Shown here: in pieces, positions 3,171 to 63,300 of the stretch
Position numbering within the stretch: the stretch's first letter is position 1
How the letters are laid out: each line of letters opens with the position of its first letter
Origin: Opitutaceae bacterium
Lineage (GTDB): Bacteria; Verrucomicrobiota; Verrucomicrobiia; Opitutales; Opitutaceae
Length of the DNA: 64,000 nucleotides
Direction of reading: 5' to 3'
Assembly: GCA_044226505.1 (NCBI GenBank)
Contig: JBGAGU010000002.1
Span: 686,559-750,558 of the forward strand
Program-made: the position numbers and the translations under genes
The notes under the pieces: generated by a model
Told to the model about the DNA's origin: nothing
Seen by the model: only the letters and a program-made list of their open reading frames with translations
Databases searched by the model: none

Positions 3171-3206
3171 GCCCCGGCGGCAAACTCGACCGACTGTCCG
3201 ACCCGC

Positions 3207-6713: not shown

Positions 6714-8762
<2,049 letters not shown>

Positions 8763-8978: not shown

Positions 8979-9243
8979 GTTGGCCTTGAAACGCATTTTT
9001 GGTTCGCAGTTATTGCCCCCTCGTCCACGCCTGAACCGCCCCCGGACTGTTCTTTCCCATGTCGCATGAGCTTGGCTCCTCGACGCCCGTAGCAACACCA
9101 CTCGCTAGCCGTTTTCCGCCAACGTTTTCCGTTTCCATCTCACCCAGCCCTTTTGCCGTTGGCGGCGACCCACTACTTTCGTTGCCGCGAACGCAGACAG
9201 GATCGGCCCCTTCGGCATGATGGAGCACCCTTCGGCGGAGCAG

Positions 9244-9252
9244 TGTGAATAA
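9244..9252 (-). promoter_or_regulatory. DnaA box (TTATTCACA, 8/9 match to TTATCCACA) just upstream of the dnaA ATG
   Basis: The plus strand reads TGTGAATAA at 9244-9252, 23 nt upstream of ATG 9275. This is consistent with dnaA autoregulation. Confidence 0.45.
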
Positions 9253-9274
9253 ACCTGCCATCCCTCGCCTGTCC

Positions 9275-18677: not shown

Positions 18678-18754
<77 letters not shown>

Positions 18755-36059: not shown

Positions 36060-36064
36060 CGATC

Positions 36065-45908: not shown

Positions 45909-45993
45909 TGGTGCCCGGACGCGGACTCGAACCGCGATGCTGTTAGGCACAGGCTTCTGAGACCTGCGTGTCTACCAATTCCACCATCCGGGC
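45909..45993 (-). tRNA. tRNA-Leu (anticodon CAG), long variable arm, CCA encoded
   Basis: Hand-folded. Acceptor GCCCGGA/TCCGGGC, anticodon arm CAGGT-CUCAGAA-GCCTG, long variable arm, T-arm GCGG-TTCGAGT-CCGC, then A-CCA. Confidence 0.9.
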
Positions 45994-47937: not shown

Positions 47938-49149
47938 TCAAGGGCACGCCACGGCAGGCTTGCGCCGGCGCATGATCACCGTTGCCAGCACGCCAGCGCC
48001 AAGAACCAGTGCATACGCGGCGGGCTCGGGCACGGGCGAAACAAAGCCGTTGGAGTCAATTTGCGCGGCGATGCCGTCGAAGGAAATGGCCGCCAATTGC
48101 GCTCCGCTAAGAGCATTGCTGCTCGTGCCGAAGCGCAGCGTGTCGCCACCGGCGCTGCTGTAGTTGGAAACCGTCAGGGTGCCGGCCCACGTCTGGCCAC
48201 TTGAGTTGGCGAACACGAGCGCGCTCGCACCCAGACCGCTGCCAAAATCGATGGTGCTGCTCGCCCCCATGCTCAACGGCGCCGAACCGAAATTCTGACT
48301 GAACGCACCGCCGGAGATCTGCAGTGTGCCGCCGCCAAGCGTCAAGGAAGCCGGGCTGGAAAACACATTGCTGGCGGCAAGCCGCAGCGTGCCGCCGGCG
48401 TTAATCACCAGCGCGCCAGTAGCGTTCGCCGCGGCGCCGAAGGCCAGCACGCCGCCATTGACCGTGGTGCCGCCGGTGTAGGTGTTGGCAGCGCTCAGCA
48501 CCCACGTGCCCGTGCCAGATTTGATCACACTGCCGGACGCCCCGGAAATCGCGGTGGCGATCGTGGACCCCGTGCCCGGGCCGTCCAAGGTGAGAGTATT
48601 GGCGCCGATAGAGAGGCTGGGGGTCAGGTTGCCAATCGAGATCGTGCTTTCCGTGTAGAAACTGGTGCTCGTCGCGAGGGCCAGGCTCAGATTGGCGCTA
48701 TTGAACGTGAGGGCGCGTGACGAGTCGTAGTTAACTAGACCGCTCGCGCCCAAGGTGAGCGTGGTTCCGCTTGCCGCGGAAAACGTCAGCGCACCCGCGC
48801 CATTGACCATTTGAATTCCGCCGACGCTGACGCTGGACGTAATCACCGGGCTGTTTGCAAACGAGCTTTGCGCGAAAAATGCGACGTCGTTTGCACCGGG
48901 CACGCCAGACCCGCCAAACCAGCTGCTGTTGGAATTGAAGTTATTCGAAGAGTCGTTCCAGACGAACGTCGCCCCCGAAACTCGCATACTAGCCAGAAAA
49001 AACATCAGCAACGGCGTTGCCGCGACAGTCGAGAGTCGGAGCCATCCACTCCGCCAGCTCCACCGCGTAAGTCTGCCGCCACCCGGCCACAGCCCTGCCC
49101 CTACAACATTACGCTCTCGGAGCGCGGCATCGTGGGATTCATGGGACAC
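47938..49149 (-). CDS. PEP-CTERM-anchored protein with autotransporter-associated beta-strand (PATR) repeats
   Basis: Repeats of the type GTGTWVLSAANTYTGGTTVNGGVLAFG. The C-terminus VSPVPEPAAYALVLGAGVLATVIMRRRK is VPEP + TM helix + basic cluster, i.e. a PEP-CTERM sorting signal. Confidence 0.75.
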   Translation of the reverse strand: MSHESHDAALRERNVVGAGLWPGGGRLTRWSWRSGWLRLSTVAATPLLMFFLASMRVSGATFVWNDSSNNFNSNSSWFGGSGVPGANDVAFFAQSSFANSPVITSSVSVGGIQMVNGAGALTFSAASGTTLTLGASGLVNYDSSRALTFNSANLSLALATSTSFYTESTISIGNLTPSLSIGANTLTLDGPGTGSTIATAISGASGSVIKSGTGTWVLSAANTYTGGTTVNGGVLAFGAAANATGALVINAGGTLRLAASNVFSSPASLTLGGGTLQISGGAFSQNFGSAPLSMGASSTIDFGSGLGASALVFANSSGQTWAGTLTVSNYSSAGGDTLRFGTSSNALSGAQLAAISFDGIAAQIDSNGFVSPVPEPAAYALVLGAGVLATVIMRRRKPAVACP

Positions 49150-49366: not shown

Positions 49367-49942
49367 TTAGGCCTTGCGCTTGGCAAACCACGCCAGACCC
49401 AAGAGGGCGAGGCCGAGGAAAGCCGCGGTCGAGCCACCGTCCGGAGCGGGAACGCCCGAGGAAGCGGAGAAGGTCGAGTTGACGTTCGTGCCGCTGCCGG
49501 CCGCGTTCTGGAAGGTCGACTCCCAAGTGCCCGCAGTATTGTCGAAACCAGCGCCACTGATGGTGCCGAAGGCGAAGAAGCCGATGCTGGTGGCAGAGTT
49601 CGACGTTTCGAAGATGCTGGTGACGTTGAAGGTGAAGCCACCGACGCTCCAAACAAGCGGACCAGGGCTGACAGTTACCACATTGCCAGCCTGATTGGTG
49701 AGCAGGCTCGTCGCCGTCGTGACCGCCGTGCCGGTGCTGATACCCGCGAAGCTGCCTGAACCCGGCCCAAGCGTCGTGGTCGAACCGAAGGTGAGAACAT
49801 TGTTCGAGGTCAAGAGATTGCCATTCGCGGCCGTATAAGTGCCGGCGAAATTAAGCTGGCCAGTGATCGGAACGGCGAAGGCCGCACCGGAAAGCCCAAG
49901 CGCGAAGCCGAGCGTGCTGATGGATTTGATGATGGATTTCAT
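49367..49942 (-). CDS. Small secreted protein with VPDSG-CTERM-type sorting signal
   Basis: ATG 49942 gives MKSIIKSISTLGFALGLSGAAFA (signal peptide). The C-terminus VPAPDGGSTAAFLGLALLGLAWFAKRKA is (V)PDGGS + TM helix + basic tail. Confidence 0.75.
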   Translation of the reverse strand: MKSIIKSISTLGFALGLSGAAFAVPITGQLNFAGTYTAANGNLLTSNNVLTFGSTTTLGPGSGSFAGISTGTAVTTATSLLTNQAGNVVTVSPGPLVWSVGGFTFNVTSIFETSNSATSIGFFAFGTISGAGFDNTAGTWESTFQNAAGSGTNVNSTFSASSGVPAPDGGSTAAFLGLALLGLAWFAKRKA

Positions 49943-49992
49943 GGAAACAAGTTGGGTTGTTCGTTGATGAAGTTGACCGACATCGACAGAAT

Positions 49993-50008
49993 AGCGAGGC
50001 GTGTGCCA
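49993..50008 (-). promoter_or_regulatory. Sigma-54 (-24/-12) promoter-like element upstream of the VPDSG-CTERM gene
   Basis: The minus strand reads cTTGGCAC-acgcc-TCGCTat, with GG-N10-GC spacing correct and one mismatch to TGGCAC-N5-TTGCW. It lies about 50 nt upstream of ATG 49942 in an AT-richer intergenic region. Confidence 0.45.
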
Positions 50009-50420
50009 AGTGAAAAAATCCATCAACACGAATCATAAATCACTATCCATCATATTTTAGAAATTCAGTAAATCAAAATGAGCCGACCTTGGCCATTCAC
50101 GATTTTGTAAGGTAAATCGACACTTCTGCCCAAGAACTTCGCATGCATGGCGCCTTGAGCATTGTGAGATATCCCAGAGTCCTCAGGTCCATGCACGAGA
50201 ATAGCGCATTCCGCCCGTCAAGATAGACGGCGAACTTCAATTCATCCAGTCCTTGGCGCTGAGGCGGCGTTTCCTGACTTGACCGAAAAGCAAGTTCATG
50301 GCGCATTCACCACCCCACGGATCAGGTGGGGTCGACGCGGCATCAGCGATGCATCACAAATCAAGAACCTGAGCCACTTCCCATCCGGAGCATACTCCCA
50401 CACCGAGCACACCAGTTCCC

Positions 50421-50468: not shown

Positions 50469-51245
50469 GTGCCCGCACTTAGCACCAGCCCCCTCGCAAA
50501 ACTGTCGTCCGCCGGCAGCGTCGCTCCACTTCCCGCGTGGAAGCGAGCCCTTGACTTGGCCTGCTGCTGTCTGGCCCTGCCGGCGCTGGCACTGGGCACA
50601 CTGCTCATCTCCGTGCTAATCGCCTTCGTTTCACCTGGACCCATTTTCTTCCGGCAGGAGCGCGTCGGTCTCAGGGGCCGGAGGTTTCGCCTTTTTAAGT
50701 TCCGCACCATGCATATGGGCGCAGCGACCTCTCAACATCAGGCGTATTTCGCGACGCTTATGGCCACAGGGGCGCCCATGCAGAAACTGGATGCAAAAGG
50801 AGATTCACGGCTTATCCCCGGTGGATGGTTGATTCGCGCCACCGGTCTCGATGAATTGCCCCAGATCATCAATGTCTTGCGCGGGGAGATGAGCGTGGTC
50901 GGCCCCCGCCCTTGTTTGGCCTACGAATACGAAAACTACACTTCGGCCCAGCGGCGACGCTTCCGATCTGTGCCAGGGCTGACCGGACTTTGGCAGGTTT
51001 CGGGCAAGAACCAAACCTCCTTCGGACGCATGATCCGACTGGACGTCTACTACTCGGCGAAAAAATCCCTCTGGCTCGACCTCAAGATTCTAGGCCTAAC
51101 CCTCCCCGCCATCGTTCGCCAAGTGGTCCAGATGATGGCTGCTCGCCGCAAATCCGATCGGCAACCCCTACCGGCTGAAGCTTTGTCTGATGCGCCGCCC
51201 ACGCGGTTGTCAGCGAGAAAGGGCCGGGTAACCACAACGCCTTGA
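50469..51245 (+). CDS. Polyprenyl-phosphate sugar phosphotransferase (bacterial sugar transferase, WbaP/ExoY C-terminal-domain type)
   Basis: SPGPIFFRQERVGLRGRRFRLFKFRTM, DELPQIINVLRGEMSVVGPRP and PGLTGLWQVSG. Confidence 0.9.
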   Translation: MPALSTSPLAKLSSAGSVAPLPAWKRALDLACCCLALPALALGTLLISVLIAFVSPGPIFFRQERVGLRGRRFRLFKFRTMHMGAATSQHQAYFATLMATGAPMQKLDAKGDSRLIPGGWLIRATGLDELPQIINVLRGEMSVVGPRPCLAYEYENYTSAQRRRFRSVPGLTGLWQVSGKNQTSFGRMIRLDVYYSAKKSLWLDLKILGLTLPAIVRQVVQMMAARRKSDRQPLPAEALSDAPPTRLSARKGRVTTTP

Positions 51246-51606
51246 CGAGGGTGGCAGGTGCCCGCGCAGCGCACTTCCCGTCAGCTACGAACCAACGGTA
51301 ACCAAATGCGCGCTTTGCGCATGATTTGCCCCTCTTTGCCGTTTCTACGCGTGGTTTTGCCCCTAACTCAGGCGAGGTTTCTGCGACCCGCGATCGCGTC
51401 CCCCCGGGGAGCCGCTGTAAAGGAACTTTGAGTCTCCGGCCGCTCTAAGCCAGCAACTCAGGGTGCGCGAGGGGCATCCGATAGCGATTGGTTCAGCGTC
51501 AACCCGCTCAAACATTAGCATTTTAGCACAAGTCGAGCATCCCCCCGGATCTGATCTCTCCGCTTCGGAATTCTTCCCGCGAAAATCAGGGTCCACCTTC
51601 TATTTT

Positions 51607-52707
51607 ATGCCGGCAAGAGCCCAATCGCCCCGCGAGTCGGCCCATGCCGTCGGAAAAAGCGCAGGCACGGTCAGCCCAGCCGATCCGACGGTAGCTCCCG
51701 ATTGGAATCGGACCATCGGCGCGCTGGGCGGGGCGACCTTTTTCCACACAAGCAACTGGGCAAACGTCCTTTCTCAGACCTATGGCTTTACCCCTGCCTA
51801 TCTCTGGCACATCAACGACGCTGGCGAGCGGTCAGTGATGCCAGCGATGGAGACATCGCAGTGGCTCTTTGGCCGACGCGGTGTTTCGCTACCCTTCACT
51901 GACGAATCCCCTGCTCTGCTGGCGGATGCAGCTGCGATTCGACCCTTGGTTGATGCGACCTTGCGCCAAGGTGCGAGCCGAGCGTGGACGAGCTGGGAAT
52001 TCCATGGCGACCGCCGGTCGCTCGGCATCGAGGACGCCCCTGCCTCGCTATCCTACTTCGGCCATGCGCTTGCCCTGAAAGGTAGCTCCGAGGAACTCTT
52101 CGCCAAGATTGACGGCACCGCGCGGACCGCAATCCGGAAGGCGATCAACCTTGGCGTGTCGGTCGAATTCTCGAACGAGCTCGCCGACCTCCGGGTTTTC
52201 TACGACCAGCTTTGCCGCACCCGCCGCAAACATGGCCTGCCACCGCAGCCATTTCGATTTTTCACCTCCATCCATCGTCACGCGCTTTCAGCCGGGCATG
52301 GCACCGTGGCAATCGCGCGGCGGGGTGGCATCCCCGTGGCCAGCGCCATCTTTTTCCATTTTGGTGCGAGCGCCATCTACAAATTTGCGGCCTCGGATCC
52401 GCTGGCCCGCGAGTCGCAAGCCAACCACCTCGTGCTGTGGCGAGCGATCGAACGCTACGCCAAGGACGGTTTTCATCGCCTCGATTTTGGACGCACATCG
52501 CGGAACAACGACGGCCTGAGGCGCTTCAAGCTGGCATGGCGTCCCACCGAATATGACCTCGACTACACCCGCTATGATTTCCGCCGCGAAGGCTTCGTTG
52601 CAGGCGGAAACGAGCGGACGACCGGATGGCACACCCGCGTCTTCCGACTGCTTCCTCCGTTCGTCTCACGACTGATTGGCGCCATCGCCTACAAGCACAT
52701 GGCCTGA
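51607..52707 (+). CDS. FemAB-like / GNAT (PF13480-type) protein of the kind associated with PEP-CTERM EPS loci
   Basis: ATG 51607 (MPARAQS). Shows FFHTSNWANVLSQTYGFTPAYLW, VSLPFTDESPALL, GTVAIARRGGIPVASAIFFHFGASAIYKFAASD and LDFGRTSRNNDGLRRFKLAW. The family was recognised by pattern only. Confidence 0.7.
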   Translation: MPARAQSPRESAHAVGKSAGTVSPADPTVAPDWNRTIGALGGATFFHTSNWANVLSQTYGFTPAYLWHINDAGERSVMPAMETSQWLFGRRGVSLPFTDESPALLADAAAIRPLVDATLRQGASRAWTSWEFHGDRRSLGIEDAPASLSYFGHALALKGSSEELFAKIDGTARTAIRKAINLGVSVEFSNELADLRVFYDQLCRTRRKHGLPPQPFRFFTSIHRHALSAGHGTVAIARRGGIPVASAIFFHFGASAIYKFAASDPLARESQANHLVLWRAIERYAKDGFHRLDFGRTSRNNDGLRRFKLAWRPTEYDLDYTRYDFRREGFVAGGNERTTGWHTRVFRLLPPFVSRLIGAIAYKHMA

Positions 52708-52784: not shown

Positions 52785-55013
52785 ATGACAAACCAAACCA
52801 TCCCGGCGGCCCAGAATCTCAATCTCGGGGACATCTACTACATCCTTTTCCGCCATAAGTGGAAAATTCTCCTGTGCTCACTCGCCGGCATCGGCATCGG
52901 CGTCGCCCTCTACAAGACCGAGTCGCCGCCCTTTCAGTCGGAGGCGATGCTCCTCGTGCGCTACATCGTGACTCCCAACACGCCATCCGCTCCAAACCCG
53001 AATGGCCAGAACACCAATGGGGTGAAATCCGCCGACGAACGCGGCGCGACCATCATGAACACCGAGATGACGATCCTGAACAGCGCGGATCTCGCCAAGG
53101 TTGTGGCGGAAATCTACGGGCCCGAGAAAATCCTCGCCAAGACAGGCGGCGGCAAAGACCTGGGCGCAGCCACCGCAGCCGTCCACAACGGACTGCGTGT
53201 TGTGGTGCCGCAGTCCAGCACCGTGCTGCAACTCACCTTTCGTCACCCTGACCCCGACCTCGTCCAACCACTACTCCAAGTCATCATCGAGCAGTATCTC
53301 AAAAAGCATCTCGAGATCCACGGCGCCGGAGGCCTCCTGTCCGAGCAGCAACAGCAGGCTATGGATAGCACGCAACTCCGCCTCAACCAAGCCGAGGACG
53401 AGCTTCGCCGCGCTTTGACTGCTATTGGCGTCACCTCCATAGAAAACGCCAAGGAAGCGGTTGCCGGCCAGATGGCCAGCAATCGCCGCGAGGTCATGAG
53501 CTACGAGACGGAAGTCGCCGGGCGCATCGCCATCCTCGAGGAATTGAAGAAGCGTCTGGAGACTTCGAAGACTCCACCACCGGAGGCCCCCAAGGAGCCC
53601 GAGATCCCCCAGAAGATAATCGACGATCACAAGATCCTCACGATGCGTGTCGGCCGACTCCAGCAGCTTGAGCAGGAGTTGCTTGCGCAGTTCACGCCGG
53701 AAACCATCCGGGTGAAGCTTGCCCAAAGCCAACTCGCGGAAGCCGAAGTCGCGTTGAACAAGCTGCGAGAGCAATACCCTCAGCTCGTGAAGTCCATCCG
53801 GCAGGACCGCGTCATCGGTCCCGACATGGACGCCAGCGAGGCCTCCTCGATTGTGGTGCAAGTTGCGGCCTACAAGGCGAAAATCAAGGAACTCGATACC
53901 CAATATGAGCGGCTCCGTGCCGAAGCCGGGAAATACGAGCGGGCGGAGGCCAACATCCAGGATTTGAAGCGCAAGCGCGACGCAGCTTTCGCGGCCTACA
54001 CCACCGTCAACCAGATAACCGAAACAAACCGCTTCAACCGAGAGATCGGCGCCATCGGCAAGGTTGCAAACATCAACACCGTCCAGTCTCCCTCGCCCTC
54101 GTTCCGCGAGCCCATCAACGTCCGCCGGTCCGCTCTGTTCGCCGTCGCTGGCATTATCGCCGGTCTGGCCTGGGCTTTCCTCGTCGAGCTCTACCTCGAC
54201 CGCTCCGTGCGTCGGCCTCAGGATCTCACGCGCATGCTGCGCGCGCCGCTCTTTCTCACCATCCCGCGGCTGAAGCTAGACCCTCAGCCGCTGGCGCTCG
54301 AAGCGACCGCGAAACCCGCCGACGGGGCGGCATCAACCTCCACGGAGCTCGTCCCGGCCAAGCCGGCCAAGCGCCGCCGCCGCACCCATTCGCTCCAGCC
54401 CTTCCACGAAACCCTGCGCGATCGCCTCATCGGATATTTCGAGAGCCGCAATCTCACCCACAAGCCCAAGCTTGTTGCCGTCACCGGCCTCGGCCACGAG
54501 GCGGGCGTCACGACGACGGCTGCGGGGTTGGCCCGCAGCCTCTCGGAAACCGGCGAGGGCAACGTCCTCCTCGTCGACATGACGGTGGGCGAAGGCGCCG
54601 CCAAGCACTTCGTCAAGGGCCGCGAGGCGTGCGGCCTCGACGAACTCCTGGAGGCGCGCAGCCAGGGCCATGTGCAGGACAACCTCTACGTCGTCACCGA
54701 GAACAACAACAGCGAGCGTCTCTCGCGCAACATGCCGCAGCGCTTCGCGCGTTTGATTCCCAAGCTGAAAGCCAGCGACTTCGACTACATCATCTTCGAC
54801 ATGCCACCGGTCAGCCAGCTCAGCATTACCCCGCGCCTCGCGGGCTACATGGACATGGTGCTGCTGGTCGTGGAGTCTGAATCCACCGACCGCGACCTCG
54901 TCCAGGGCGCGTGCAACCTGCTTGCGGAGTCCAAGGCCCATGTCGGCGTGGTCCTCAACAAGACGCGCAACTACGTCCCGGGAAAGCTCAGCCCGGAACT
55001 GCTCGCCACTTGA
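52785..55013 (+). CDS. Polysaccharide co-polymerase (Wzz/GumC-type chain-length determinant) fused to a BY-kinase-like P-loop domain with a degenerate Walker A
   Basis: N-terminal Wzz region with a TM helix (WKILLCSLAGIGIGVALY), long coiled coils and a second TM helix (ALFAVAGIIAGLAWAFLV). The C-terminal domain has VAVTGLGHEAGVTTTAAGLA (no Lys), VLLVDM and DYIIFDMPP. Confidence 0.85.
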   Translation: MTNQTIPAAQNLNLGDIYYILFRHKWKILLCSLAGIGIGVALYKTESPPFQSEAMLLVRYIVTPNTPSAPNPNGQNTNGVKSADERGATIMNTEMTILNSADLAKVVAEIYGPEKILAKTGGGKDLGAATAAVHNGLRVVVPQSSTVLQLTFRHPDPDLVQPLLQVIIEQYLKKHLEIHGAGGLLSEQQQQAMDSTQLRLNQAEDELRRALTAIGVTSIENAKEAVAGQMASNRREVMSYETEVAGRIAILEELKKRLETSKTPPPEAPKEPEIPQKIIDDHKILTMRVGRLQQLEQELLAQFTPETIRVKLAQSQLAEAEVALNKLREQYPQLVKSIRQDRVIGPDMDASEASSIVVQVAAYKAKIKELDTQYERLRAEAGKYERAEANIQDLKRKRDAAFAAYTTVNQITETNRFNREIGAIGKVANINTVQSPSPSFREPINVRRSALFAVAGIIAGLAWAFLVELYLDRSVRRPQDLTRMLRAPLFLTIPRLKLDPQPLALEATAKPADGAASTSTELVPAKPAKRRRRTHSLQPFHETLRDRLIGYFESRNLTHKPKLVAVTGLGHEAGVTTTAAGLARSLSETGEGNVLLVDMTVGEGAAKHFVKGREACGLDELLEARSQGHVQDNLYVVTENNNSERLSRNMPQRFARLIPKLKASDFDYIIFDMPPVSQLSITPRLAGYMDMVLLVVESESTDRDLVQGACNLLAESKAHVGVVLNKTRNYVPGKLSPELLAT

Positions 55014-55056
55014 ACCCACCGCCCGATTTACCGCCGCCCGCGTTTGCCCGCTCTCG

Positions 55057-57240
55057 ATGCTGAAGAGCCACCAAAAGTTCTACTATGCGCTCAAGCCATT
55101 CCTTCCCTGGCGGCTGAGGATGGCGTTGCGGCGCGTCGCCGCCCGCCGCATCCAGCGCGCATCCAGCACAACCTGGCCAACCGATCCCGCTACGCGGCTT
55201 GCCCCTGACGGCTGGCCCGGCTGGCCCGAAGGGAAAAAATTCGCCGTTGTGCTCACGCACGACGTCGAGGGACCCGCGGGCTTGGAAAAATGCCGCCCGC
55301 TTTTTTCCCTCGAGCGCTCCCTTGGTTTCCGCAGCTCCTTCAACTTCATCCCCGAAGGCGACTATCGGGTGTCACCCGACCTTCGCGCGGAACTGGAGGC
55401 CGCGGGCTTTGAGGTGGGCGTCCATGATTTGCGGCACGATGGAAAGCTCTTCCAGTCCCACGCGCGCTTTCGGGAAAATGCGCGCCGAATCAACCAATAT
55501 GTCCGCGAATGGGGCGCCTCCGGCTATCGCTCCGGCTTCATGTTGCGCAACCTCGACTGGCTGCACGACCTCGACATCCGCTACGACTCCTCGACGTTCG
55601 ATACGGATCCCTTCGAGCTGCAGCCGGACGGGGCGGGCACCATCTTCCCGTTCTGGGTAACGCCGCCGCCCTCGGGCGCGGGCTCCATGTCGCCGTTTGC
55701 CACGAGTGAAAACGCCGCCGCGGCGCGCGGCGGTTACGTCGAGCTCCCCTACACCCTGCCTCAGGACTCAACGCTGTTCCTGGTCCTGCGCGAGAAGTCG
55801 CCCGAGACTTGGATTCGCAAGCTCGATTGGATCGTCGCGCAAGGCGGCATGGTGCTTATGAACGTGCATCCCGACTATGTCCGCTTCGACGGCGAGGCCG
55901 AGTCGTCGCGCACCTACCCGGTGGGGTTTTACGCGCAGGTGCTGGAACACATCCGCCGCAACTACGCCGGGCAGTATTGGCAGGCCCTGCCGCGCGAGGT
56001 CGCGCAGTTCACTGCGTCGATGGCCACCAGGCCCACGCGCCGGCGGGCACGGCGCGTCTGCATGGTCACCCATTCATTCTATGAGAGCGACAATCGCGTG
56101 ACCCGCTATGCCGAGGCGCTGGCCGCTCGCGGCGACCACGTCGACGTCGTCGCGCTGAGGCGTTCCGCCAGCCTCCCGGCACAGGAGGTCATCGAAGGCG
56201 TCAGCGTTGTGCGACTGCAGGATCGGTTCGGCAAGAACGAACAGTCAAAGCTCTCCTACCTCTGGCCGCTCGTGCGGTTCCTGTTCCGCTCCGCGAGTTG
56301 GATCACCTGCCAGAACCGCCAGCAACGCTACGACCTCGTGCACGTGCACAACATGCCGGATTTCCTCATCTTCGCGGCCTGGCACCCGCGGTTGACCGGG
56401 GCCAGGATCATCCTGGATATCCACGACATCGTGCCCGAGTTCTACGCCAGCAAGTTCAGCCGCGGGAAGTCCTCCATCACCATCTCCGCGCTCAAGCTCG
56501 TGGAACGCTGGTCGGCGCACTTTGCCCACCATGTGATCGTCTCGAACCACCTTTGGTTGGAAAAATTCCGCGCCCGCACGCACATGGAGGATCGCTGCTC
56601 GGTCTTCATCAACAACGTCGACTCCCGCATCTTTCAGCCCCAGCCGCGCACGCGGACCGACGACAAACTGATCGTCATCTTCCCCGGCGGACTCCAGTGG
56701 CACCAGGGCCTCGACATCGCGCTCGACGCCTTCGCCACCGTGAAGGCGCGGTTGCCGCAGGCTGAGTTCCACATCTACGGCGACGGCAACATGAAGCCCT
56801 CCCTGGTCGAGCAGGCCCAGCGGCTCGGCTTCAATGGCAGCGTCAAATTTTTCGAGCCCGTGGGCGTGCGCCAAGTCGCGCGCATCATGGCCGCCGCTGA
56901 TCTCGGCATCGTGCCCAAGCGCGCCGATTCCTTCGGCAACGAGGCCTACAGCACGAAGATCATGGAGTTCATGTCGGTCGGAATTCCGGTCGTCATTTCC
57001 CGCACCAAGATCGATCAATTTTATTTCAACGACTCGGTCGTGCGCTTCTTCGACTCGGGCAACGCCGCCGCGCTGGCCGAAGGCATGATCGAGGTCCTCG
57101 AAAATCCCGAGCGCCGGCGGCGCATGGTCGCCAACGCGCTCGCCTATTCCGACGAGCACAGCTGGAAGCGTCGCAAGACCGACTATCTGCGCATCGCCGA
57201 CGACCTCATCGCCGGCACGCCCCCCAAGCCCGCCACATGA
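55057..57240 (+). CDS. Fusion protein: polysaccharide deacetylase-like N-domain + GT4 glycosyltransferase C-domain
   Basis: ATG 55057 (MLKSHQKFYY). N-domain shows FAVVLTHDVEGPAG, FNFIPEG and VGVHDLRHDG. C-domain shows VCMVTHSFYESDNRVTRYAEALA, VHVHNMPDFL, FPGGLQWHQGLD and the GT4 E-x7-E motif GNEAYSTKIMEFMSVGIPVV. Confidence 0.8.
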   Translation: MLKSHQKFYYALKPFLPWRLRMALRRVAARRIQRASSTTWPTDPATRLAPDGWPGWPEGKKFAVVLTHDVEGPAGLEKCRPLFSLERSLGFRSSFNFIPEGDYRVSPDLRAELEAAGFEVGVHDLRHDGKLFQSHARFRENARRINQYVREWGASGYRSGFMLRNLDWLHDLDIRYDSSTFDTDPFELQPDGAGTIFPFWVTPPPSGAGSMSPFATSENAAAARGGYVELPYTLPQDSTLFLVLREKSPETWIRKLDWIVAQGGMVLMNVHPDYVRFDGEAESSRTYPVGFYAQVLEHIRRNYAGQYWQALPREVAQFTASMATRPTRRRARRVCMVTHSFYESDNRVTRYAEALAARGDHVDVVALRRSASLPAQEVIEGVSVVRLQDRFGKNEQSKLSYLWPLVRFLFRSASWITCQNRQQRYDLVHVHNMPDFLIFAAWHPRLTGARIILDIHDIVPEFYASKFSRGKSSITISALKLVERWSAHFAHHVIVSNHLWLEKFRARTHMEDRCSVFINNVDSRIFQPQPRTRTDDKLIVIFPGGLQWHQGLDIALDAFATVKARLPQAEFHIYGDGNMKPSLVEQAQRLGFNGSVKFFEPVGVRQVARIMAAADLGIVPKRADSFGNEAYSTKIMEFMSVGIPVVISRTKIDQFYFNDSVVRFFDSGNAAALAEGMIEVLENPERRRRMVANALAYSDEHSWKRRKTDYLRIADDLIAGTPPKPAT

Positions 57241-58436
57241 AAGCCCGCATCGAACAGAGCCTTCTCGGCGTGCAACGATGGGTCGAGGCCCGCGGCTACC
57301 GCGGCTACGATCCGGGCGACGGCCTCACCTCCTTCCTGCGCCCGCTCACGTTCGGGCACCTGTTCGCCGAGCGCCTGCTTCAGCAGGCGATCTGGAAATC
57401 CCCGATTAACATCCGCCCGCTCGTGGGCGTGAAGCCGCTCGATTCCACCAAGGGCCGTGGCTTCATGGCCTGGGGCCACGCCCTTCTGCACCAAGCCACT
57501 GGTGACGACAGTCACCGCGCGAAAGCGTTCGCGTGCCTCGACTGGCTGGACCACGCGCGCGAGGCCGGCTACGCGGGCCACTGCTGGGGCAACCACTTCG
57601 ACTTCTCCACGCGCAGCGGCTGCATGAAAGCCCATACGCCCACCATCGTGTGGTCGGGCCTCATCGGCCAGGCGTTTGTCGCCGCCTACGAGCGCTTCCG
57701 CGAGCCGCGCCACCTCGAGATCGCCGACAGCATCTGCCGGTGGATCCTCACGCTGCCGCGCGAGACCACGCCCACCGGGGCCTGCCTCAGCTACACCGGC
57801 GTCTTCCAAAACTCCGTCCACAACTCCAACCTCCTCGGCGCGGCGCTCCTCGCGAAGACCGGCCGCCTGACGGGCAACACCCGCTACCTCGAGGTCGCGC
57901 GCGACGCCGCCCGCTACAGTTGCGAGCGGCTCCGCCCCGACGGCTCGTGGTGGTATGGCGAGGACCCGAAATACCACTGGATCGATAACTTTCACACGGC
58001 CTACAACCTCGACAGCCTCCGCCGCTACATCGACGCCACGGGCGACCGCTCCTTCGACTCGCACCTCGCGCGCGGCTACGAGTATTTCAAGGCGACCTTT
58101 TTCGAACCTTCGGGCCGCCCGCGTTACTACCACGACCGCACCTATCCCGTGGACATCCAGTGCGCCTCGCAGGCCATCGACACCTTCGCCTTCTTCTCCG
58201 ATCGCGATCCGGCCGCGCTGTCTGTCGCGATGAAGGTCGCCGACTGGACCATCTCGAACATGCAGGACCGCACCGGCTACTTCTATTATCGCGAGTATCC
58301 GCTGATGAAGGCGCGCACGCCCTACTTTCACTGGGGCCAGGCGACGATGTTCAAGGCGCTCTCGCACCTGCTGGTGAAGCTCGGCCCCGCCGGGACCGCC
58401 GCCCGCGAGCCGGCTTTCGCCGCCACCGCCTCATGA
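57237..58436 (+). CDS. Hypothetical protein, probably an all-alpha (alpha/alpha-toroid-like) EPS-modifying enzyme
   Basis: 399-aa ORF translationally coupled to its neighbours (ATGA overlaps on both sides). Shows GHCWGNHFDFSTRSG, NSNLLGAALLA, DGSWWYGED and WIDNFHTAYNLDSL. The fold assignment is a guess. Confidence 0.55.
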   Translation: MKARIEQSLLGVQRWVEARGYRGYDPGDGLTSFLRPLTFGHLFAERLLQQAIWKSPINIRPLVGVKPLDSTKGRGFMAWGHALLHQATGDDSHRAKAFACLDWLDHAREAGYAGHCWGNHFDFSTRSGCMKAHTPTIVWSGLIGQAFVAAYERFREPRHLEIADSICRWILTLPRETTPTGACLSYTGVFQNSVHNSNLLGAALLAKTGRLTGNTRYLEVARDAARYSCERLRPDGSWWYGEDPKYHWIDNFHTAYNLDSLRRYIDATGDRSFDSHLARGYEYFKATFFEPSGRPRYYHDRTYPVDIQCASQAIDTFAFFSDRDPAALSVAMKVADWTISNMQDRTGYFYYREYPLMKARTPYFHWGQATMFKALSHLLVKLGPAGTAAREPAFAATAS

Positions 58437-59371
58437 GCGCCCGCCTGAAATACGTGCTCGTCACGCCCGCGCGCAACGAGGCCGCCTTCATCGAGGGCAC
58501 CATCAAATCCGTCGTCGCCCAGACCGCGCGCCCGGAAAAGTGGGTCATCGTCAGCGACGGCTCCAGCGACGGCACCGACGATATCGTGAAGCGCCACGCC
58601 GCCCAGCACCCGTGGATCGAGCTCCTGCGGATGCCGGAGCACCGCGACCGCACCTTTGCCGCCAAGGCCAACTGCTTCGCCGCCGGCTTTGCGCGCCTGG
58701 CCGGCACCGACTACGACCTCGTGGGCAACCTCGACGCCGACATCACGATGGGCCCCGACTACTACGAGTTCCTGCTCGCGCGCTTCGCGGAACGCCCGCG
58801 GCTCGGCGTCGCCGGCACGCCCTTTGTCGAGGACGAGTCGAAACCGCACGAGCACAGCTACGCGCACGGCTCGGCGAACCTCACGCACGTCTCCGGAGCG
58901 TGCCAGATTTTCCGCAAGCCGTGCTTCGCCGAGGTCGGGGGCTACGTCCCGATCAAGGGCGGCGCGATCGACTGGATTGCGGTCACGACCGCACGCATGA
59001 AGGGCTGGGAAACGCGCACCTTCCTCGAGCGCGTTTGCTTTCACCATCGGAAGATCGGCACGGGCAACCACAGCCCGCTCATGGCTCGATTCCACTACGG
59101 GCGAAAAGCCTACTACGTCGGCGGCCACCCGTTGTGGGAGACACTGCGCGGGCTGTTCCAATTCCGCGAGGCGCCATTCCTCATCGGCTCGGTCTGGTTC
59201 GTGGCCGGCTACTGGTGGGCGTGCCTCACGCGGATGCCGCGCCCGGTGTCCCGCGAGCTGATGGCGTTTCATCGCGGCGAACAGATGGCGCGGCTGCGCC
59301 AGCTCCTGCGGCTCGAAAAGAAACCCGCGCCTCCGACGACACCCGGGGCGATGTCCGGCACGCGAGCATGA
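58433..59371 (+). CDS. Glycosyltransferase family 2
   Basis: ATG 58433 (MSARLKYVLVTPARNEAAFIEGTIKSVVAQT), VIVSDGSSDGTDDIV and a DxD-like NLDADI. Confidence 0.85.
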   Translation: MSARLKYVLVTPARNEAAFIEGTIKSVVAQTARPEKWVIVSDGSSDGTDDIVKRHAAQHPWIELLRMPEHRDRTFAAKANCFAAGFARLAGTDYDLVGNLDADITMGPDYYEFLLARFAERPRLGVAGTPFVEDESKPHEHSYAHGSANLTHVSGACQIFRKPCFAEVGGYVPIKGGAIDWIAVTTARMKGWETRTFLERVCFHHRKIGTGNHSPLMARFHYGRKAYYVGGHPLWETLRGLFQFREAPFLIGSVWFVAGYWWACLTRMPRPVSRELMAFHRGEQMARLRQLLRLEKKPAPPTTPGAMSGTRA

Positions 59372-60309
59372 TCACCCCGGCACCCGGCACCACCAAGGAC
59401 GGCGCGCCGGATGCGATTCAACCGCATCTCAGCGTCTGTATCTGCACCTTCAAGCGTCCCGTGCTGCTGCGGCGGCTGCTCGAGGAGCTGGAGAAGCAGG
59501 AAACCGGCGGGGCGTTCAGCTATTCGATCGTCGTCGCGGACAACGACGCGACCCGATCCGCCGAAGCGCTCGTCGCAGAGTTTGCCGCGCGCTCGCCCGG
59601 TCGTGTCACCTACTGCTGCGAGCCCACGCAGAACATCGCCCTCGTGCGCAACCGCGCGATCGCGCACGCCCGCGGCGACTTTCTCGTCTTCATCGACGAC
59701 GACGAGTTTCCCGTGCCCGCGTGGCTCGCGGAGCTTTGGAAAACCTGCGAGTCGCACCGCGTCTCCGGCGTGCTCGGCCCCGTGCGGCCGCACTTCGATT
59801 CACCGCCGCCGGCGTGGCTCATCAGGGGCCGGTTTTGCGAGCGCCCCGAGTTTCCCACCGGGACGCCGCTCGCGTGGTCGCAGTGCCGCACGGGCAATGT
59901 GCTGTTCCGGCGTGCCATTCTGCCGGCGGATACCCCGCCGTTTCGCGAGCAGTTCGGCACCGGCGGCGAGGACGTCGATTTCTTCCAGCGCATGAGCGCC
60001 GCCGGCGCAAAGTTCATCTGGTGCAATGAGGCGGTCGCCTACGAGACCGTGCCGCCCTCGCGCTGGACGCGCAGCTACATGCTGCGGCGCGCCCTGCTCC
60101 GGGGTAAAAACAGCCTGAAGATTGGCCGGGGCCGTCTCCTGCTGATGGTGAAGTCCCTCGTGGCCGTGCCACTCTACGGCATCGTGCTGCCTTTTTCGCT
60201 GCTCGCCGGCCACCACCGCTTCATGCACCTCCTCATCCGGTGCTGCGATCACGTGGGCCGATTGCTGGCCGCCGTCGGGCTTCATCCGATGGAAGCGCGG
60301 CCGATGTAA
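59368..60309 (+). CDS. Glycosyltransferase family 2
   Basis: ATG 59368. Shows LSVCICTFKRPVLLRRLLEEL, IVVADNDATRSA, FIDDDEFP and GGEDVDFF, with a C-terminal TM segment. Confidence 0.85.
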   Translation: MITPAPGTTKDGAPDAIQPHLSVCICTFKRPVLLRRLLEELEKQETGGAFSYSIVVADNDATRSAEALVAEFAARSPGRVTYCCEPTQNIALVRNRAIAHARGDFLVFIDDDEFPVPAWLAELWKTCESHRVSGVLGPVRPHFDSPPPAWLIRGRFCERPEFPTGTPLAWSQCRTGNVLFRRAILPADTPPFREQFGTGGEDVDFFQRMSAAGAKFIWCNEAVAYETVPPSRWTRSYMLRRALLRGKNSLKIGRGRLLLMVKSLVAVPLYGIVLPFSLLAGHHRFMHLLIRCCDHVGRLLAAVGLHPMEARPM

Positions 60310-60348: not shown

Positions 60349-61341
60349 ATGCCGAACGCCGATACCGCCCAACCCGAGGCATCGCCCCGAAGGACGGCCG
60401 CACCTGCACTTGAGTTCGAAGGGCGGCGCATCGTCTGTTCCGCCGGGCGGCTTCGGATCGCGTCCATCTTTGACGAGGTCTGGCTCGATCTCCCGCCACT
60501 CGCCAACCCCTTTGCGCTGCTCGACGCGGTCGAGCGCTCGGCGATCCAGGCCGATCTCTTTACCTTTGCCCAGTCGCTCCCCGAAGTCGCGGTGGCCTAT
60601 CCGGATCTTCACGTCGACCACGACAACCTCGCCGTCGGCGACACCTCGAACTTCAAGGCTTGGTGGGAAGGGCTGCCGCAGGAATCGCGGAAAAACTGCC
60701 GCAAAGCCCAAAAACGCGGCGTGACCGTGCGCCGCGCGGAGTTCGACGACGCGCTCGTCGCCGGCATCAAGGCGATCTACGACGAGACGCCGATTCGCCA
60801 AGGCCGGCGTTTTCCCCACTACGGCAAGGATCTCGCGACGGTGCGCGCCGAGAACGCGAGCTACGCGGAGCGCAGCCGGTTCATCGGCGCGTTTCTCGGG
60901 ACGCAGCTGATCGGCTTCATCAAGATGGTCTACTGCGGCCGAACCGCCCGCATCATGCAGATCATCGCGCGCAACGACCACTATGAGAAGCATCCCACGA
61001 ACGCGCTGCTGGCGGCCGCGATGGAGCAATGCTCAAAAGACTCCATCGATCGGCTGATCTACGGGCAGTATGTCTATGGCCGGAAGCGCAACAGCAGCGT
61101 GACGGAGTTCAAGCGCCGCAACGGTTTCATCGAGGTGCTCTTGCCGCGCTACTACATTCCCCTCACCGCCAAGGGTCGCCTTGCCCTGGCCACCGGGCTG
61201 CACCGTGGCCTGGCCGCCAACCTGCCCGAGCCTGTGACGAACTTCCTGCTGGACTCACGCGCCTTCGTTTACGACAAGTTCGGCCCGAAATTTTCGGGCG
61301 GGCGCGCCCCTTCATCCGCATCGCAGCGGGCCGCCTCATGA
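60349..61341 (+). CDS. Second FemAB-like / GNAT (PF13480-type) protein
   Basis: ORF 60331..61341 (TTG start); ATG 60349 preferred. Shows FKAWWEGLPQESRKNCRKAQKRGVTVR, IYDETPIRQGRRFPHYG, FIGAFLGTQLIGFIKMVYCGRTARIMQI and SVTEFKRRNGF. Confidence 0.65.
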   Translation: MPNADTAQPEASPRRTAAPALEFEGRRIVCSAGRLRIASIFDEVWLDLPPLANPFALLDAVERSAIQADLFTFAQSLPEVAVAYPDLHVDHDNLAVGDTSNFKAWWEGLPQESRKNCRKAQKRGVTVRRAEFDDALVAGIKAIYDETPIRQGRRFPHYGKDLATVRAENASYAERSRFIGAFLGTQLIGFIKMVYCGRTARIMQIIARNDHYEKHPTNALLAAAMEQCSKDSIDRLIYGQYVYGRKRNSSVTEFKRRNGFIEVLLPRYYIPLTAKGRLALATGLHRGLAANLPEPVTNFLLDSRAFVYDKFGPKFSGGRAPSSASQRAAS

Positions 61342-61350
61342 AATTCTTTC

Positions 61351-61425
61351 GCCGGTGTAGCTCAACGTTAGAGTGGCCGAATTGTATTCGGCAGATGGAG
61401 TGTTCGATTCCTCCCGCCGGCTCCA
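61351..61425 (+). tRNA. Non-canonical tRNA-Thr(UGU)-like gene (bulged T-stem, D-loop without GG), CCA encoded; possibly a specialised tRNA or a tRNA pseudogene
   Basis: Hand-folded sequence GCCGGTG-TA-GCTC-AACGTTA-GAGT-G-GCCGA-ATTGTAT-TCGGC-AGAT-GGAG(T)G-TTCGATT-CCTCC-CGCCGGC-T-CCA. The anticodon stem is a perfect 5 bp with U33 and A37. U8, A14, A21, the T54-A58 loop and C61 are canonical. An extra U is bulged in the T-stem, and the 7-nt D-loop lacks G18G19. It is followed by T6. Confidence 0.6.
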
Positions 61426-61476: not shown

Positions 61477-63300
61477 ATGCCCGGCTTCGCAGGCATCCTC
61501 GGCTCCCGCACCCAGAATCCAGCTTCTCGCATCGAGGCCGGAGCGATGGCACAGGCATTGGCCGACGGAACCGAGGGACCCTCGGCCACCGGGAGCTTTT
61601 CCATCGATCGCGAGCAGGCGACGCTGACGTGGGTGCGACGGGTCACCGATCAGGAAAGCACCGCGTGGAATCGAACCCGGGACATCCTGCTCATATTCAA
61701 CGGCCGTGATTTCGACTTGCCGGAGAAGGCCAAGGCCCTCTGCGCCCGCGGCCGCTCCTGCACCACCGACGCCGAGGTTCTCGTGCACTGTTATGAGGAG
61801 GAAGGAGATTCCTTTGTCTCGCGTCTCAACGGTCGATTCACCGGCGTGATTGTCGACCAGCGCGCCGGCAAGGTCCTTTTGTTCAACGATCGTTTTGGCG
61901 CCGGGCGGGTGTATGTCCACGCCGCATCCGACGGGATCCGGTTTGCCACCGAAGCCAAGGCGCTCCTCGCCGCTTACCCGAGCCTGCGCCGCGTCGATCC
62001 CCGCGGACTGGGGGAGTTTTTCTCCGTAGGCTGCGTGCTGCAGGATCGCACGCTTTTTCCCGACATCGCTTTGTTGCCGGCCGGATCGCTCTGGACGCTC
62101 CATGCCGATGGGCGCGCCGAGCGCCGCCGGTATTTCTCACCCGAGGCATGGGAACAGCAAACCCCGCTCGAGCCGGAGGACTTCGGCACGCAGCTCACCG
62201 AGCTCTTCGCGCGCCTGGTGCCGCGTTACCATCGCGAGGCCGGGCAGGTCGCGATGTCGATGACCGGGGGCCTCGACAGTCGCATGATTCTTGCCTGGGC
62301 CAGGGCCCGGCCCGGCGAGTTGCCGTGCTACACCTTTGGCGGCCCCTACCGCGATTGCGCCGACGTTCAGCTGGCCCGCCGCCTCGCCAAACTCGCGGCG
62401 CAGCCGCACCATACCATACCGATTGGCCCGGACTTTTTCGCCCAGTTTGCTTCCCTCGCGGCGCGCACCGTGCAGTTGAGCGACGGAACGATGGATGTCT
62501 CCGGCGCGGTTGAACTCTACGCCAACCGCCTCGCCCGGCAAATTGCCCCGGTGCGCCTGACCGGCAACTACGGCTCGGAGATCCTGCGGGCCAATGTTGC
62601 CTTTCGGCCTCGCGCCCTCGACCGCGCGTTGTTCGCTCCGGAATTCCTCCCGCAGCTCGACGCGGCGGCGGAAACCTACCGCGCCGAGGCCGCGGGCCAC
62701 CGTCTGTCATTCATCGCGTTCAAGCAGGTGCCGTGGCACCACCACGCGCGCCTCTCGATCGAGGCCGCGGTGCTGGAGCCGCGCTCGCCGTTCCTCGACA
62801 ACGCGCTTGTGGCGCTGGCCTATCGCACGCCGCCGGCCCTGGCGCGCAGCCCCGTGCCCGCATTGCGCACGACTGCGGCCGGCAATCCCGCCTTCGCGTC
62901 CGTCCCCACCGATCGCGCCCTGCGGCTCGGTCGCTCGCCGGCGCTCGCACACCGCTGGCAGGAGTTCACCGCCAAAGCCGAATACGCGTGGGATTACGGC
63001 ATGCCCCCGTGGCTCGTGCGCGCCGATCGTCTGCTGCGCCCGCTGCGGCCGGAGCGGCTCTTTCTCGGCCGACACAAGTTCTATCATTTTCGCACCTGGT
63101 ATCGCGACCAACTCGGCCCCGAAATCGCCAGCCGGCCCTTTGGGCTTTCGCGCCTTCCCGCGTGCTACGCCGCCGGCGTCCCGCGAATGATTGCACGGGA
63201 CCACGCGGCCGGCCGGAAAAACTTCACGCTCGATCTGCACCGCCTGCTCACGCTGGACTGCCTTGATAAGTTCCTCGCCGAACCGCCATGCCGCAACTGA
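61477..63300 (+). CDS. Asparagine synthetase (AsnB)-family amidoligase lacking the N-terminal catalytic cysteine
   Basis: The N-terminus is MPGFAGILG, versus the canonical MCGIAG. Ntn-like domain (DAEVLVHCYEEEG, RLNGRFTGVIVD) and a synthetase-domain PP-loop (AMSMTGGLDSRMILAW). Confidence 0.85.
   Translation: MPGFAGILGSRTQNPASRIEAGAMAQALADGTEGPSATGSFSIDREQATLTWVRRVTDQESTAWNRTRDILLIFNGRDFDLPEKAKALCARGRSCTTDAEVLVHCYEEEGDSFVSRLNGRFTGVIVDQRAGKVLLFNDRFGAGRVYVHAASDGIRFATEAKALLAAYPSLRRVDPRGLGEFFSVGCVLQDRTLFPDIALLPAGSLWTLHADGRAERRRYFSPEAWEQQTPLEPEDFGTQLTELFARLVPRYHREAGQVAMSMTGGLDSRMILAWARARPGELPCYTFGGPYRDCADVQLARRLAKLAAQPHHTIPIGPDFFAQFASLAARTVQLSDGTMDVSGAVELYANRLARQIAPVRLTGNYGSEILRANVAFRPRALDRALFAPEFLPQLDAAAETYRAEAAGHRLSFIAFKQVPWHHHARLSIEAAVLEPRSPFLDNALVALAYRTPPALARSPVPALRTTAAGNPAFASVPTDRALRLGRSPALAHRWQEFTAKAEYAWDYGMPPWLVRADRLLRPLRPERLFLGRHKFYHFRTWYRDQLGPEIASRPFGLSRLPACYAAGVPRMIARDHAAGRKNFTLDLHRLLTLDCLDKFLAEPPCRN

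Follow-up and report, generated by a model that had tools for sequence, protein, structure and literature searches.

We analysed a 64,000-nucleotide (nt) stretch of DNA from Opitutaceae bacterium (assembly GCA_044226505.1, contig JBGAGU010000002.1, positions 686,559 to 750,558 of the forward strand), hereafter referred to as the window, and focused on a tRNA gene embedded in an exopolysaccharide (EPS) locus. NCBIfam/Pfam scans showed that this locus spans the window from ~47 kb onward, in the order PEP-CTERM/VPDSG-CTERM proteins, a priming sugar transferase, the FemAB-family protein Fem1, a Wzz/tyrosine kinase, a GT4 glycosyltransferase, a 399-aa protein, two GT2 glycosyltransferases, the tandem-GNAT protein Fem2 (60349..61341, + strand), the tRNA and an AsnB-like protein (61477..63300, +), and a Wzy_C gene follows the AsnB-like open reading frame (ORF), as seen in identical public contigs. 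The tRNA, a non-canonical tRNA-Thr(UGU) hereafter called the cassette tRNA, occupies 61351..61425 (+) and is recognized by ARAGORN, Rfam, a covariance model (R1) and covariation. It starts 9 nt after the upstream stop (ORF end 61341) and ends 51 nt before the ATG at 61477, in agreement with the spacing given in an earlier sequence-only reading of this DNA, which had described a cloverleaf tRNA-Thr(UGU)-like gene between a second Fem-like gene and an AsnB-like gene and had proposed that it might be a dedicated non-ribosomal aminoacyl donor.

The sequence of the tRNA at 61351-61425(+) is GCCGGUGUAGCUCAACGUUAGAGUGGCCGAAUUGUAUUCGGCAGAUGGAGUGUUCGAUUCCUCCCGCCGGCUCCA, with the anticodon at 61383-61385 and a bulged T-stem U at 61401. 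ARAGORN typed it as tRNA-Thr(tgt); the anticodon falls at position 33, a sign of a short D arm. A search of the whole window with the Rfam model RF00005 returned the gene at 49.7 bits (gathering threshold 29, E = 1.2e-7). The gene is therefore real, and it passes the Infernal/Rfam scoring that the sequence-only reading had suggested as a check. The two ordinary tRNAs of the window scored 63.3 and 54.4 bits with the same model. Canonical comparators from the same genome are tRNA-Leu(CAG) at 45909-45993(-) and tRNA-Pro(GGG) at 18678-18754(-). The minimum-free-energy fold of the cassette tRNA reached -29.5 kcal/mol (z = -2.9 against shuffles), and most of the features described from the letters were found again: an acceptor stem GCCGGUG/CGCCGGC with one U6-G67 pair; U8, A14 and A21; a perfect anticodon stem GCCGA/UCGGC with the loop AUUGUAU; a canonical T-loop; and a discriminator U with an encoded CCA, followed by T6. 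The T-arm (GGAG-U-G UUCGAUU C-CUCC) holds the bulged U, which appears in the Rfam alignment as a single inserted U on the 5' strand of the T-stem, as had been claimed. The D-loop (AACGUUA) is 7 nt long with U at position 19, so the reported loop length and loss of G19 stand, whereas the reported loss of G18 does not, as the family alignment keeps this base. The window tRNA thus departs from RF00005 in two hallmarks: its T-stem is not a continuous 5-bp helix, and it lacks the G18G19 elbow dinucleotide. A promoter and terminator scan around the tRNA predicted neither, so the T6 after the CCA is not a predicted terminator.

We then compared 80 genome loci (L001-L080; further loci carry higher numbers) that were fetched through the alignment of Fem2 homologues; L005 is from an isolate, Horticoccus sp. 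23ND18S-11. They came from Verrucomicrobiota, Acidobacteriota, Alpha-, Beta- and Gammaproteobacteria, and Nitrospirae and Chloroflexota metagenome-assembled genomes (MAGs); many loci are from MAGs, and the phylum labels of single contigs may include binning errors. In most of the 80 loci, ARAGORN found a tRNA just downstream of the Fem2 homologue, nearly all with the anticodon at position 33. The covariance model R1, built from 53 distinct tRNA copies, detected the cassette tRNA beside Fem2 in 58 of the 80 loci and at least four phyla (64-104 bits), including three copies missed by ARAGORN, one of which is cut by a contig end. The window tRNA reached 99.9 bits with R1, and canonical tRNAs did not exceed 56 bits, E. 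coli thrU, thrT and glyT included (51-56 bits), as against 76-104 bits for the family in the same comparison. The tRNA began a median of 49 nt beyond the Fem2 stop, and the AsnB-like start came a median of 61 nt after the tRNA. In the reciprocal direction, metagenomes were scanned with a pattern taken only from the tRNA T-arm and the acceptor 3' strand, which gave 120 loci; a Fem2 homologue lay directly upstream in 99 of the 102 loci having at least 400 nt of upstream sequence. The AsnB-like gene came next after the tRNA in 57 of 94 testable metagenome loci and was present anywhere in the locus in 68 of 94, and it followed Fem2 and the tRNA in ~70 of the 80 genome loci. When the window was compared with four Opitutaceae relatives, the tRNA stood out as an island of near-identity amid diverged flanks. 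Conservation of the tRNA and its bulge beside Fem-like genes, another check named in the sequence-only reading, was thus confirmed in the genome loci, and the linkage to Fem2 in the metagenome loci as well. Two loci carry tandem cassette tRNAs between Fem2 and the AsnB-like gene (L006:8950-9024 and 9213-9287; L021:8961-9036 and 9124-9199). In two alphaproteobacterial loci, a cassette tRNA adjoins Fem2 on the opposite strand (L012:9243-9317(-) and L040:7235-7309(-)), and there it would need its own promoter.

The alignment of 53 sequences supported the cloverleaf with a bulged T-stem, in which 98.7% of cells formed standard pairs and 13 of 21 pairs showed compensatory double changes. None of 500 shuffles equalled any covariation measure, and pairing dropped to 34-58% in controls in which the 3' partner was slid by 1-3 columns. 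Among 140 distinct tRNA copies (genome and metagenome sets together), a pyrimidine fills the extra T-stem position (U 92, C 45). In 132 of the 140 copies the bulge falls between pairs 52:62 and 53:61, and one or two pairs earlier in a few lineages; the metagenome copies were chosen by a bulge-containing pattern, and its near-universality is therefore read mainly from the genome set, where a 6-nt 5' strand faces a 5-nt 3' strand of the T-stem in 52 of 53 copies. The D-loop is 7 nt long in 135 of 140 copies and retains G18. Position 19 is variable among the common forms (U 63, G 29, C 27, A 8), and only 33 of the 140 family members possess the GG elbow dinucleotide. These data bear on the possibility, raised in the sequence-only reading, that the gene is a decaying tRNA pseudogene; a remnant of a mobile-element integration site was considered with it. 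The bulge and the loss of G19 are non-canonical features that would suit a pseudogene, but both recur in different phyla, in a cloverleaf with compensated pairs (13 of 21) and tight linkage to Fem2, and the tRNA sits between two co-directional conserved genes and not at an island edge. This explanation was rejected on the grounds of synteny and covariation, and the probability left to it is negligible.

Further differences from decoding tRNAs were found in the anticodon arm, which lay outside every search pattern used to collect the 140 copies. The anticodon was UGU in 60 copies, CGU in 57, AGU in 13, UCC in 6 and ACC in one, with positions 35/36 being GU in 130 copies and CC in seven. Position 34 was U (66), C (57) or A (14) and never G (0 of 140). 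In bacteria, GGU is a common Thr anticodon, and A34 is unusual in tRNAs other than tRNA-Arg. U33 was replaced in 27 of 137 copies (20%), a pyrimidine occupied position 37 in 20 of 137 (15%), and one or the other change affected 44 of 137 (32%); three copies had an anticodon loop of 8-9 nt. Elongator tRNAs keep U33 and a purine at position 37 almost universally. Moreover, the wobble base varied at the same syntenic site among close relatives (UGU, CGU or AGU), and the tRNAs of L002 and L003 differed only at position 34 (C versus A). Such drift between close relatives suggests that the tRNA is not needed for one particular codon.

These observations speak to whether the gene could be an ordinary elongator tRNA-Thr(UGU) that lies in the operon by chance and may help to decode ACA in EPS genes with high expression. 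The window copy, with its U33, A37 and canonical T-loop, and an RF00005 score close to the 54-63 bits of the other tRNAs in the window, is compatible with that role. An elongator would, however, be expected to conserve its anticodon, U33 and purine 37 among orthologues, and here the syntenic orthologue reads CGU or AGU in close relatives and about a third of the family has lost U33 or the purine. The conserved T-stem bulge, the loss of G19, the near absence of the tRNA away from Fem2 and the tandem duplicates within the cassette (L006 and L021) also argue against it, and we consider an elongator very improbable.

The relaxed anticodon loop coexists with strictly kept positions elsewhere. The discriminator was U in all 140 copies, the CCA was encoded in 117 of 140, and G1-C72 and C2-G71 were invariant in the 53 genome copies. 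Threonyl-tRNA synthetase (ThrRS) reads acceptor pairs and anticodon nucleotides, and bacterial glycyl-tRNA synthetase (GlyRS) reads G1-C72, C2-G71, C35, C36 and U73 (PMC9976931). The retained positions are those that ThrRS or GlyRS reads, which suggests that synthetase identity elements have been kept and, at the sequence level, bears out the proposed match of the first two acceptor pairs to ThrRS identity. The Gly(UCC) variants of the genome set reached 76-94 bits with R1; they share the family scaffold, with its bulge and 7-nt D-loop, and have pair 3:70 turned to G-C. These variants had at least four origins within the Fem2 tree, a quick neighbour-joining tree, and look like identity switching on a fixed scaffold. 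A separate Fem2 clade for the Gly-type cassettes was ruled out by these repeated origins, so amino-acid specificity on the enzyme side is not mappable.

Other tRNAs were found after Fem-type genes. In L011, a class II Ser-like tRNA (7865-7957) comes directly after a Fem2 paralogue (294 aa, 34% identity to the window Fem2). The anticodon arm of this tRNA is an 8-bp stem closed by GCAA, with no anticodon, and the tRNA has a GGAGAGG acceptor, G73, a long variable arm and a one-nucleotide T-stem bulge on the 3' strand. The Fem2-paralogue family comprises 410 homologues at E<=1e-40, and the Ser-like RNA followed the paralogue in 6 of 6 loci, namely L011 and five further ones, two of which carry the same protein (L201:4433-4529; L202:~4984-5078; L203 and L204:4930-5024; L205:4910-5004). 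The loops in the further loci were GAAA, GCAA or GUCA on a stem of 7-8 bp. ARAGORN reported these RNAs with '4-nt anticodons' as tRNA-???, and Rfam gave only a sub-threshold tRNA-Sec match. Seryl-tRNA synthetase (SerRS) does not read the anticodon (PMC9976931), and thus a Ser acceptor without an anticodon could still be charged. Asn-type tRNAs were also detected. In L101 (oriented with the cassette tRNA on the + strand), a PF02388 FemAB gene (ORF 2515-3507) precedes a tRNA-Asn(GUU) at 3498-3572 with U37, and in L072 an Asn-type tRNA(GUU) at 8969-9043 follows Fem2 and has U37 and two T-stem mismatches. Together, the Ser-like and Asn cases suggest that Fem-type genes followed by tRNAs unfit for decoding form a recurring pattern. 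In addition, L070 has a canonical-looking tRNA-Asn at 7891-7966, 30 nt upstream of Fem2. At 10032-10106 of L183 (cassette orientation), ARAGORN called a Trp (cca) tRNA whose acceptor is of Gly type (GCGGAGG, U73, CCA) and whose anticodon arm is irregular; it is flanked by two GT4 genes, and the cassette is 7.5 kb away.

Fem2 has 330 aa in public assemblies, where the gene calls start 6 codons downstream of the mechanical ORF (336 aa, from 60331) and the exact product is on record (P0001); its homologues are named 'hypothetical protein' in public sources. NCBIfam gave it no name, the Pfam FemAB family PF02388 did not match, and PF13480 matched marginally (23.3 bits, cut-off 22). The AF2 model showed a tandem GNAT fold (pLDDT 81.4, pTM 0.75), and the top 16 PDB matches of this model in Foldseek were all aminoacyl-tRNA-dependent transferases (Sba18/Sbb17, A-PGS/MprF and FemX), with FemA lower in the list. 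The top matches 9wqy, 9wqw, 4v35, 9goe and 1xf8 had a probability of 1.00, TM of 0.50-0.55 and E of 5e-11 to 1e-8. A profile of the Fem2 alignment searched against PDB sequences returned generic GNATs only, and for this reason the family assignment follows the predicted fold. The earlier description of the upstream gene as 'FemAB-like' is accordingly upheld by the predicted fold and not by sequence. FemX/FemA, MprF/A-PGS and the streptothricin-type synthases Sba18/Sbb17/Orf11 have the same two-GNAT fold as the Fem2 model, with 12-17% identity to Fem2, which has no PF02388 match. From the predicted fold and the adjacent tRNA, we infer that Fem2 is a transferase that uses aminoacyl-tRNA as its acyl donor.

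The AsnB-like protein downstream matches PF13537 and PF00733, with sub-threshold matches to TIGR01536 and TIGR03108, and is similar to NF033535. Its N-terminus is MPGFAGI and not MCGI, and it therefore lacks the catalytic Cys2, the glutaminase nucleophile, while the PP-loop is kept as TGGLDS (an SGGxDS-type motif). The MPGI(A/V/T)GI N-terminus is conserved in cassette copies across phyla, and other AsnB paralogues in the same loci start with MCGI. Public calls start the AsnB-like gene 23 codons downstream and lose this conserved N-terminus. The nearest solved structure is 7ylz, a hydroxyamidotransferase. Without the glutaminase cysteine, this adenylating enzyme is expected to activate a carboxylate by adenylation and to join it to an amine that is not ammonia from glutamine. 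Lasso-peptide cyclases and beta-lactam synthetase carry out couplings of this kind.

This chemistry allows a different assignment of the tRNA, in which the AsnB-like enzyme, alone or beside Fem2, is the tRNA user and joins an adenylated carboxylate (e.g., of a uronic acid) to the alpha-amine of Thr-tRNA in a PEARL-like manner, with Fem2 passing on the N-acylated aminoacyl group or acting elsewhere. PEARL-type use of aminoacyl-tRNA is already known (PMC12945691). The missing cysteine, the kept PP-loop and the short median distance between the tRNA and the AsnB-like start agree with this assignment, as do L053 and L059, where the tRNA adjoins the AsnB-like gene and not Fem2, which is 2.7 kb away. 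However, the tRNA is linked more tightly to Fem2 (99 of 102) than to the AsnB-like gene (57-68 of 94), and L026, L038, L068 and L040 contain Fem2 and the tRNA while the AsnB-like gene is absent within 8 kb. Furthermore, the insertion between Fem2 and the tRNA in L053 (9051-11650), which encodes a 358-aa unknown ORF, a second FemAB protein (PF02388) and a small GNAT N-acetyltransferase, puts a FemAB gene of its own immediately before the tRNA region. AsnB-family enzymes are also not known to bind tRNA. Overall, the AsnB-like enzyme is unlikely to be the user of the tRNA. The N-acetyltransferase in the L053 insert hints at an N-acetyl-aminoacyl substituent.

A tRNA-shaped element within an operon could also act in cis, as a site for RNase P/Z processing or as a regulatory sensor that would separate or tune the Fem2 and AsnB-like messages, and never serve as an amino-acid donor. 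The very short spacers around the tRNA and the lack of a predicted promoter or terminator of its own would suit such an element. Processing alone, though, leaves unexplained the invariant identity nucleotides and the CCA encoded in 117 of 140 copies, and it does not account for the joint switch of the anticodon and pair 3:70 to Gly identity. The Ser-like partner keeps the SerRS elements (long variable arm and G73), and the tRNA of L012 and L040 is on the opposite strand and still adjacent to Fem2. We therefore regard a purely cis-acting role as quite improbable.

Taken together, we consider it probable that the cassette tRNA, though functional, no longer takes part in translation and acts as a private aminoacyl carrier for the EPS operon. 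The donor idea of the sequence-only reading gains support from the linkage to Fem2, the drifting position 34, the relaxed anticodon loop, the bulge and the anticodon-less Ser-like sister. The cassette tRNA would be transcribed with the operon and excised by normal tRNA processing, and housekeeping ThrRS would charge it with threonine, given that invariance in the acceptor and the anticodon loop is confined to the first acceptor pairs and G35/U36. The pyrimidine bulge in the T-stem and the loss of the G19-C56 elbow pair may then bar EF-Tu and the ribosome, and the loss of U33 or of the purine at position 37 in many relatives may add to this exclusion. Fem2 is predicted, from its fold and its linkage, to recognize the body of the tRNA and to move the threonyl group onto the growing polysaccharide repeat unit, where the acceptor is probably an amino group, as with Fem, MprF and Sba18-type enzymes. 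A switch of the identity nucleotides from Thr to Gly would alter the delivered amino acid and leave the scaffold unchanged. More speculatively, the Cys-less AsnB-like enzyme might join an ATP-activated carboxylate to a non-ammonia amine. This amine may be the alpha-amino group left free on the attached amino acid, and the product would then be an amino-acid bridge or an N-acyl-aminoacyl substituent.

Several points weigh against this reading. The window copy retains U33, A37, a canonical T-loop and a normal anticodon stem, and, taken alone, could decode ACA; its exclusion from translation is thus argued from the bulge, U19 and the behaviour of its orthologues. About a quarter of the Fem2 loci, mainly those of one acidobacterial Fem2 clade, have no tRNA, which means that the Fem2 enzyme can work without a private tRNA. 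To these are added the bulge-based choice of the metagenome copies and the position of the tRNA in L053 and L059, as described above. Fem2 itself is Fem-like by predicted fold (TM ~0.55) and not by sequence, with its marginal PF13480 match and generic GNAT hits, so that acyl-CoA is a conceivable, if less likely, donor.

Previous studies described non-proteogenic tRNA-Gly in staphylococci, which have weak T-stem pairs, altered D and T loops and poor EF-Tu binding, are preferred by FmhB, FemA and FemB and, according to the authors, had turned up only in S. aureus and S. epidermidis (PMC7826273). The cassette tRNA resembles the staphylococcal tRNA-Gly NP1-NP3 in keeping identity elements, in its deviant D and T arms and in having a base other than G at position 19. 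Both are paired with Fem-type transferases, the cassette tRNA by gene linkage, and the poor EF-Tu binding shown for the staphylococcal tRNAs is expected for the cassette tRNA. In contrast to the staphylococcal set, which carries Gly only and serves peptidoglycan, the cassette tRNA is a Thr type with Gly, Asn and Ser-like variants, occurs in Gram-negative soil and freshwater phyla, would serve a polysaccharide pathway and is encoded inside the operon right after the enzyme gene. Its T-stem is bulged, whereas the staphylococcal tRNAs have weak 49-51/63-65 pairs and a UGC/UGU T-loop, and only in the cassette tRNA are the anticodon-loop constraints visibly relaxed. It also falls outside the staphylococcal lineage, since it derives from bacterial tRNA-Thr (aligned to E. 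coli thrU). On sequence grounds, the cassette tRNA is an analogue and not a homologue of staphylococcal tRNA-Gly, with an independent origin from tRNA-Thr.

Single-nucleotide T-stem bulges and non-standard acceptor or T arms are also known from tRNA-Sec, selC* tRNA-Cys (A51a bulge) and allo-tRNAs, the last being Ser-like in identity (PMC7609411, PMC5389517). Those tRNAs still decode on the ribosome, delivered by SelB or EF-Tu, and their arms are 8/4 or 9/3. The cassette family differs in its 7/5 arms with a bulge, in its tie to a transferase gene and in having a Ser-like sister that lacks an anticodon altogether. A review from 2026 on enzymes that depend on aminoacyl-tRNA includes no polysaccharides and no dedicated tRNA genes, and reports no private tRNA gene beside the known aminoacyl-tRNA-dependent transferases (PMC12945691). 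Full-text literature searches gave no description of tRNA genes tied to Fem-like or AsnB-like genes in polysaccharide clusters. XrtA/PEP-CTERM EPS loci (TIGR03019, TIGR03108) share Fem-like, AsnB-like and PEP-CTERM proteins with the present locus, and Fem1 resembles TIGR03019. Fem2, in contrast, has no TIGR03019 match, and the AsnB-like protein lacks Cys2 and reaches 98.9 bits against the TIGR03108 cut-off of 816.9. No tRNA partner for the TIGR03019 and TIGR03108 families came up in the literature searches, and a Rubrivivax paper on an EPS locus with TIGR03019 lists FemAB and AsnB genes without the word 'tRNA'.

The remaining genes of the EPS locus were annotated from the NCBIfam/Pfam scans and are all on the + strand unless indicated. 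The priming sugar transferase (Bac_transf) lies at 50469-51245. Fem1 (51463..52707), at the head of the locus, matches PF02388 (38.7 bits) and PF13480 (65.6 bits) and reaches 105.6 bits with TIGR03019 (XrtA/PEP-CTERM FemAB), which is under the cut-off; it is possibly a second user of aminoacyl-tRNA. The Wzz/tyrosine-kinase chain-length determinant (52785-55013) and the GT4 glycosyltransferase (54922-57240) follow, and then a soluble 399-aa protein without family assignment or transmembrane segment (57237-58436) and the two GT2 glycosyltransferases (~58433-59371 and 59368-60309). The gene order of this module upstream of Fem2 (54922..60309) recurs in most related loci and in the L207 gene calls, and the 399-aa protein is conserved just upstream in most cassettes, between GT4 and GT2. 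At relaxed Pfam thresholds, the 399-aa protein gave only faint matches to GH127, pectate lyase, C5-epimerase and GH88-type barrels, which are uninformative on the acceptor sugar. PEP-CTERM/PATR and VPDSG-CTERM proteins flank the EPS locus just upstream, at 47938-49149(-) and 49367-50029(-), and a sigma-54 response regulator (34713-36059(+)) and a sulfatase (36056-37567(+)) lie upstream of it.

In a broader view, Verrucomicrobiota, Acidobacteriota and Proteobacteria may share a broad, unrecognized class of tRNAs that act as aminoacyl carriers, each encoded directly behind a Fem-type transferase gene in a polysaccharide locus. Such tRNAs would be free of decoding, with even the anticodon gone in the Ser-like branch, would use the bulge as both an anti-EF-Tu signal and a handle for the enzyme, would be programmable for Thr, Gly, Asn or Ser through their synthetase identity nucleotides, and would act together with the Cys-less AsnB-like enzyme to build amino-acid bridges or N-acyl-aminoacyl decorations on exopolysaccharides; we regard this proposal as evenly poised between holding and failing. 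If true, it would represent tRNA-dependent chemistry so far undescribed for polysaccharides, and polysaccharides decorated or bridged with amino acids from aminoacyl-tRNA would be expected. It would also give testable functions to a large 'hypothetical' tandem-GNAT family and to the Cys-less AsnB-like family. What is new relative to the staphylococcal precedent is the pathway, the phyla, the structural signature and the anticodon-less sister family. Our findings suggest that Fem-dedicated non-translating tRNAs evolved independently, in a new pathway and with other amino acids, and that they are common in abundant soil and freshwater phyla. The bulge and the loss of G19, U33, R37 or the whole anticodon may illustrate ways in which nature shields a tRNA from the ribosome, and such insulated cassette tRNAs may be useful for tRNA engineering and orthogonal systems. 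For the organisms that carry them, tRNA gene counts would overestimate decoding capacity.

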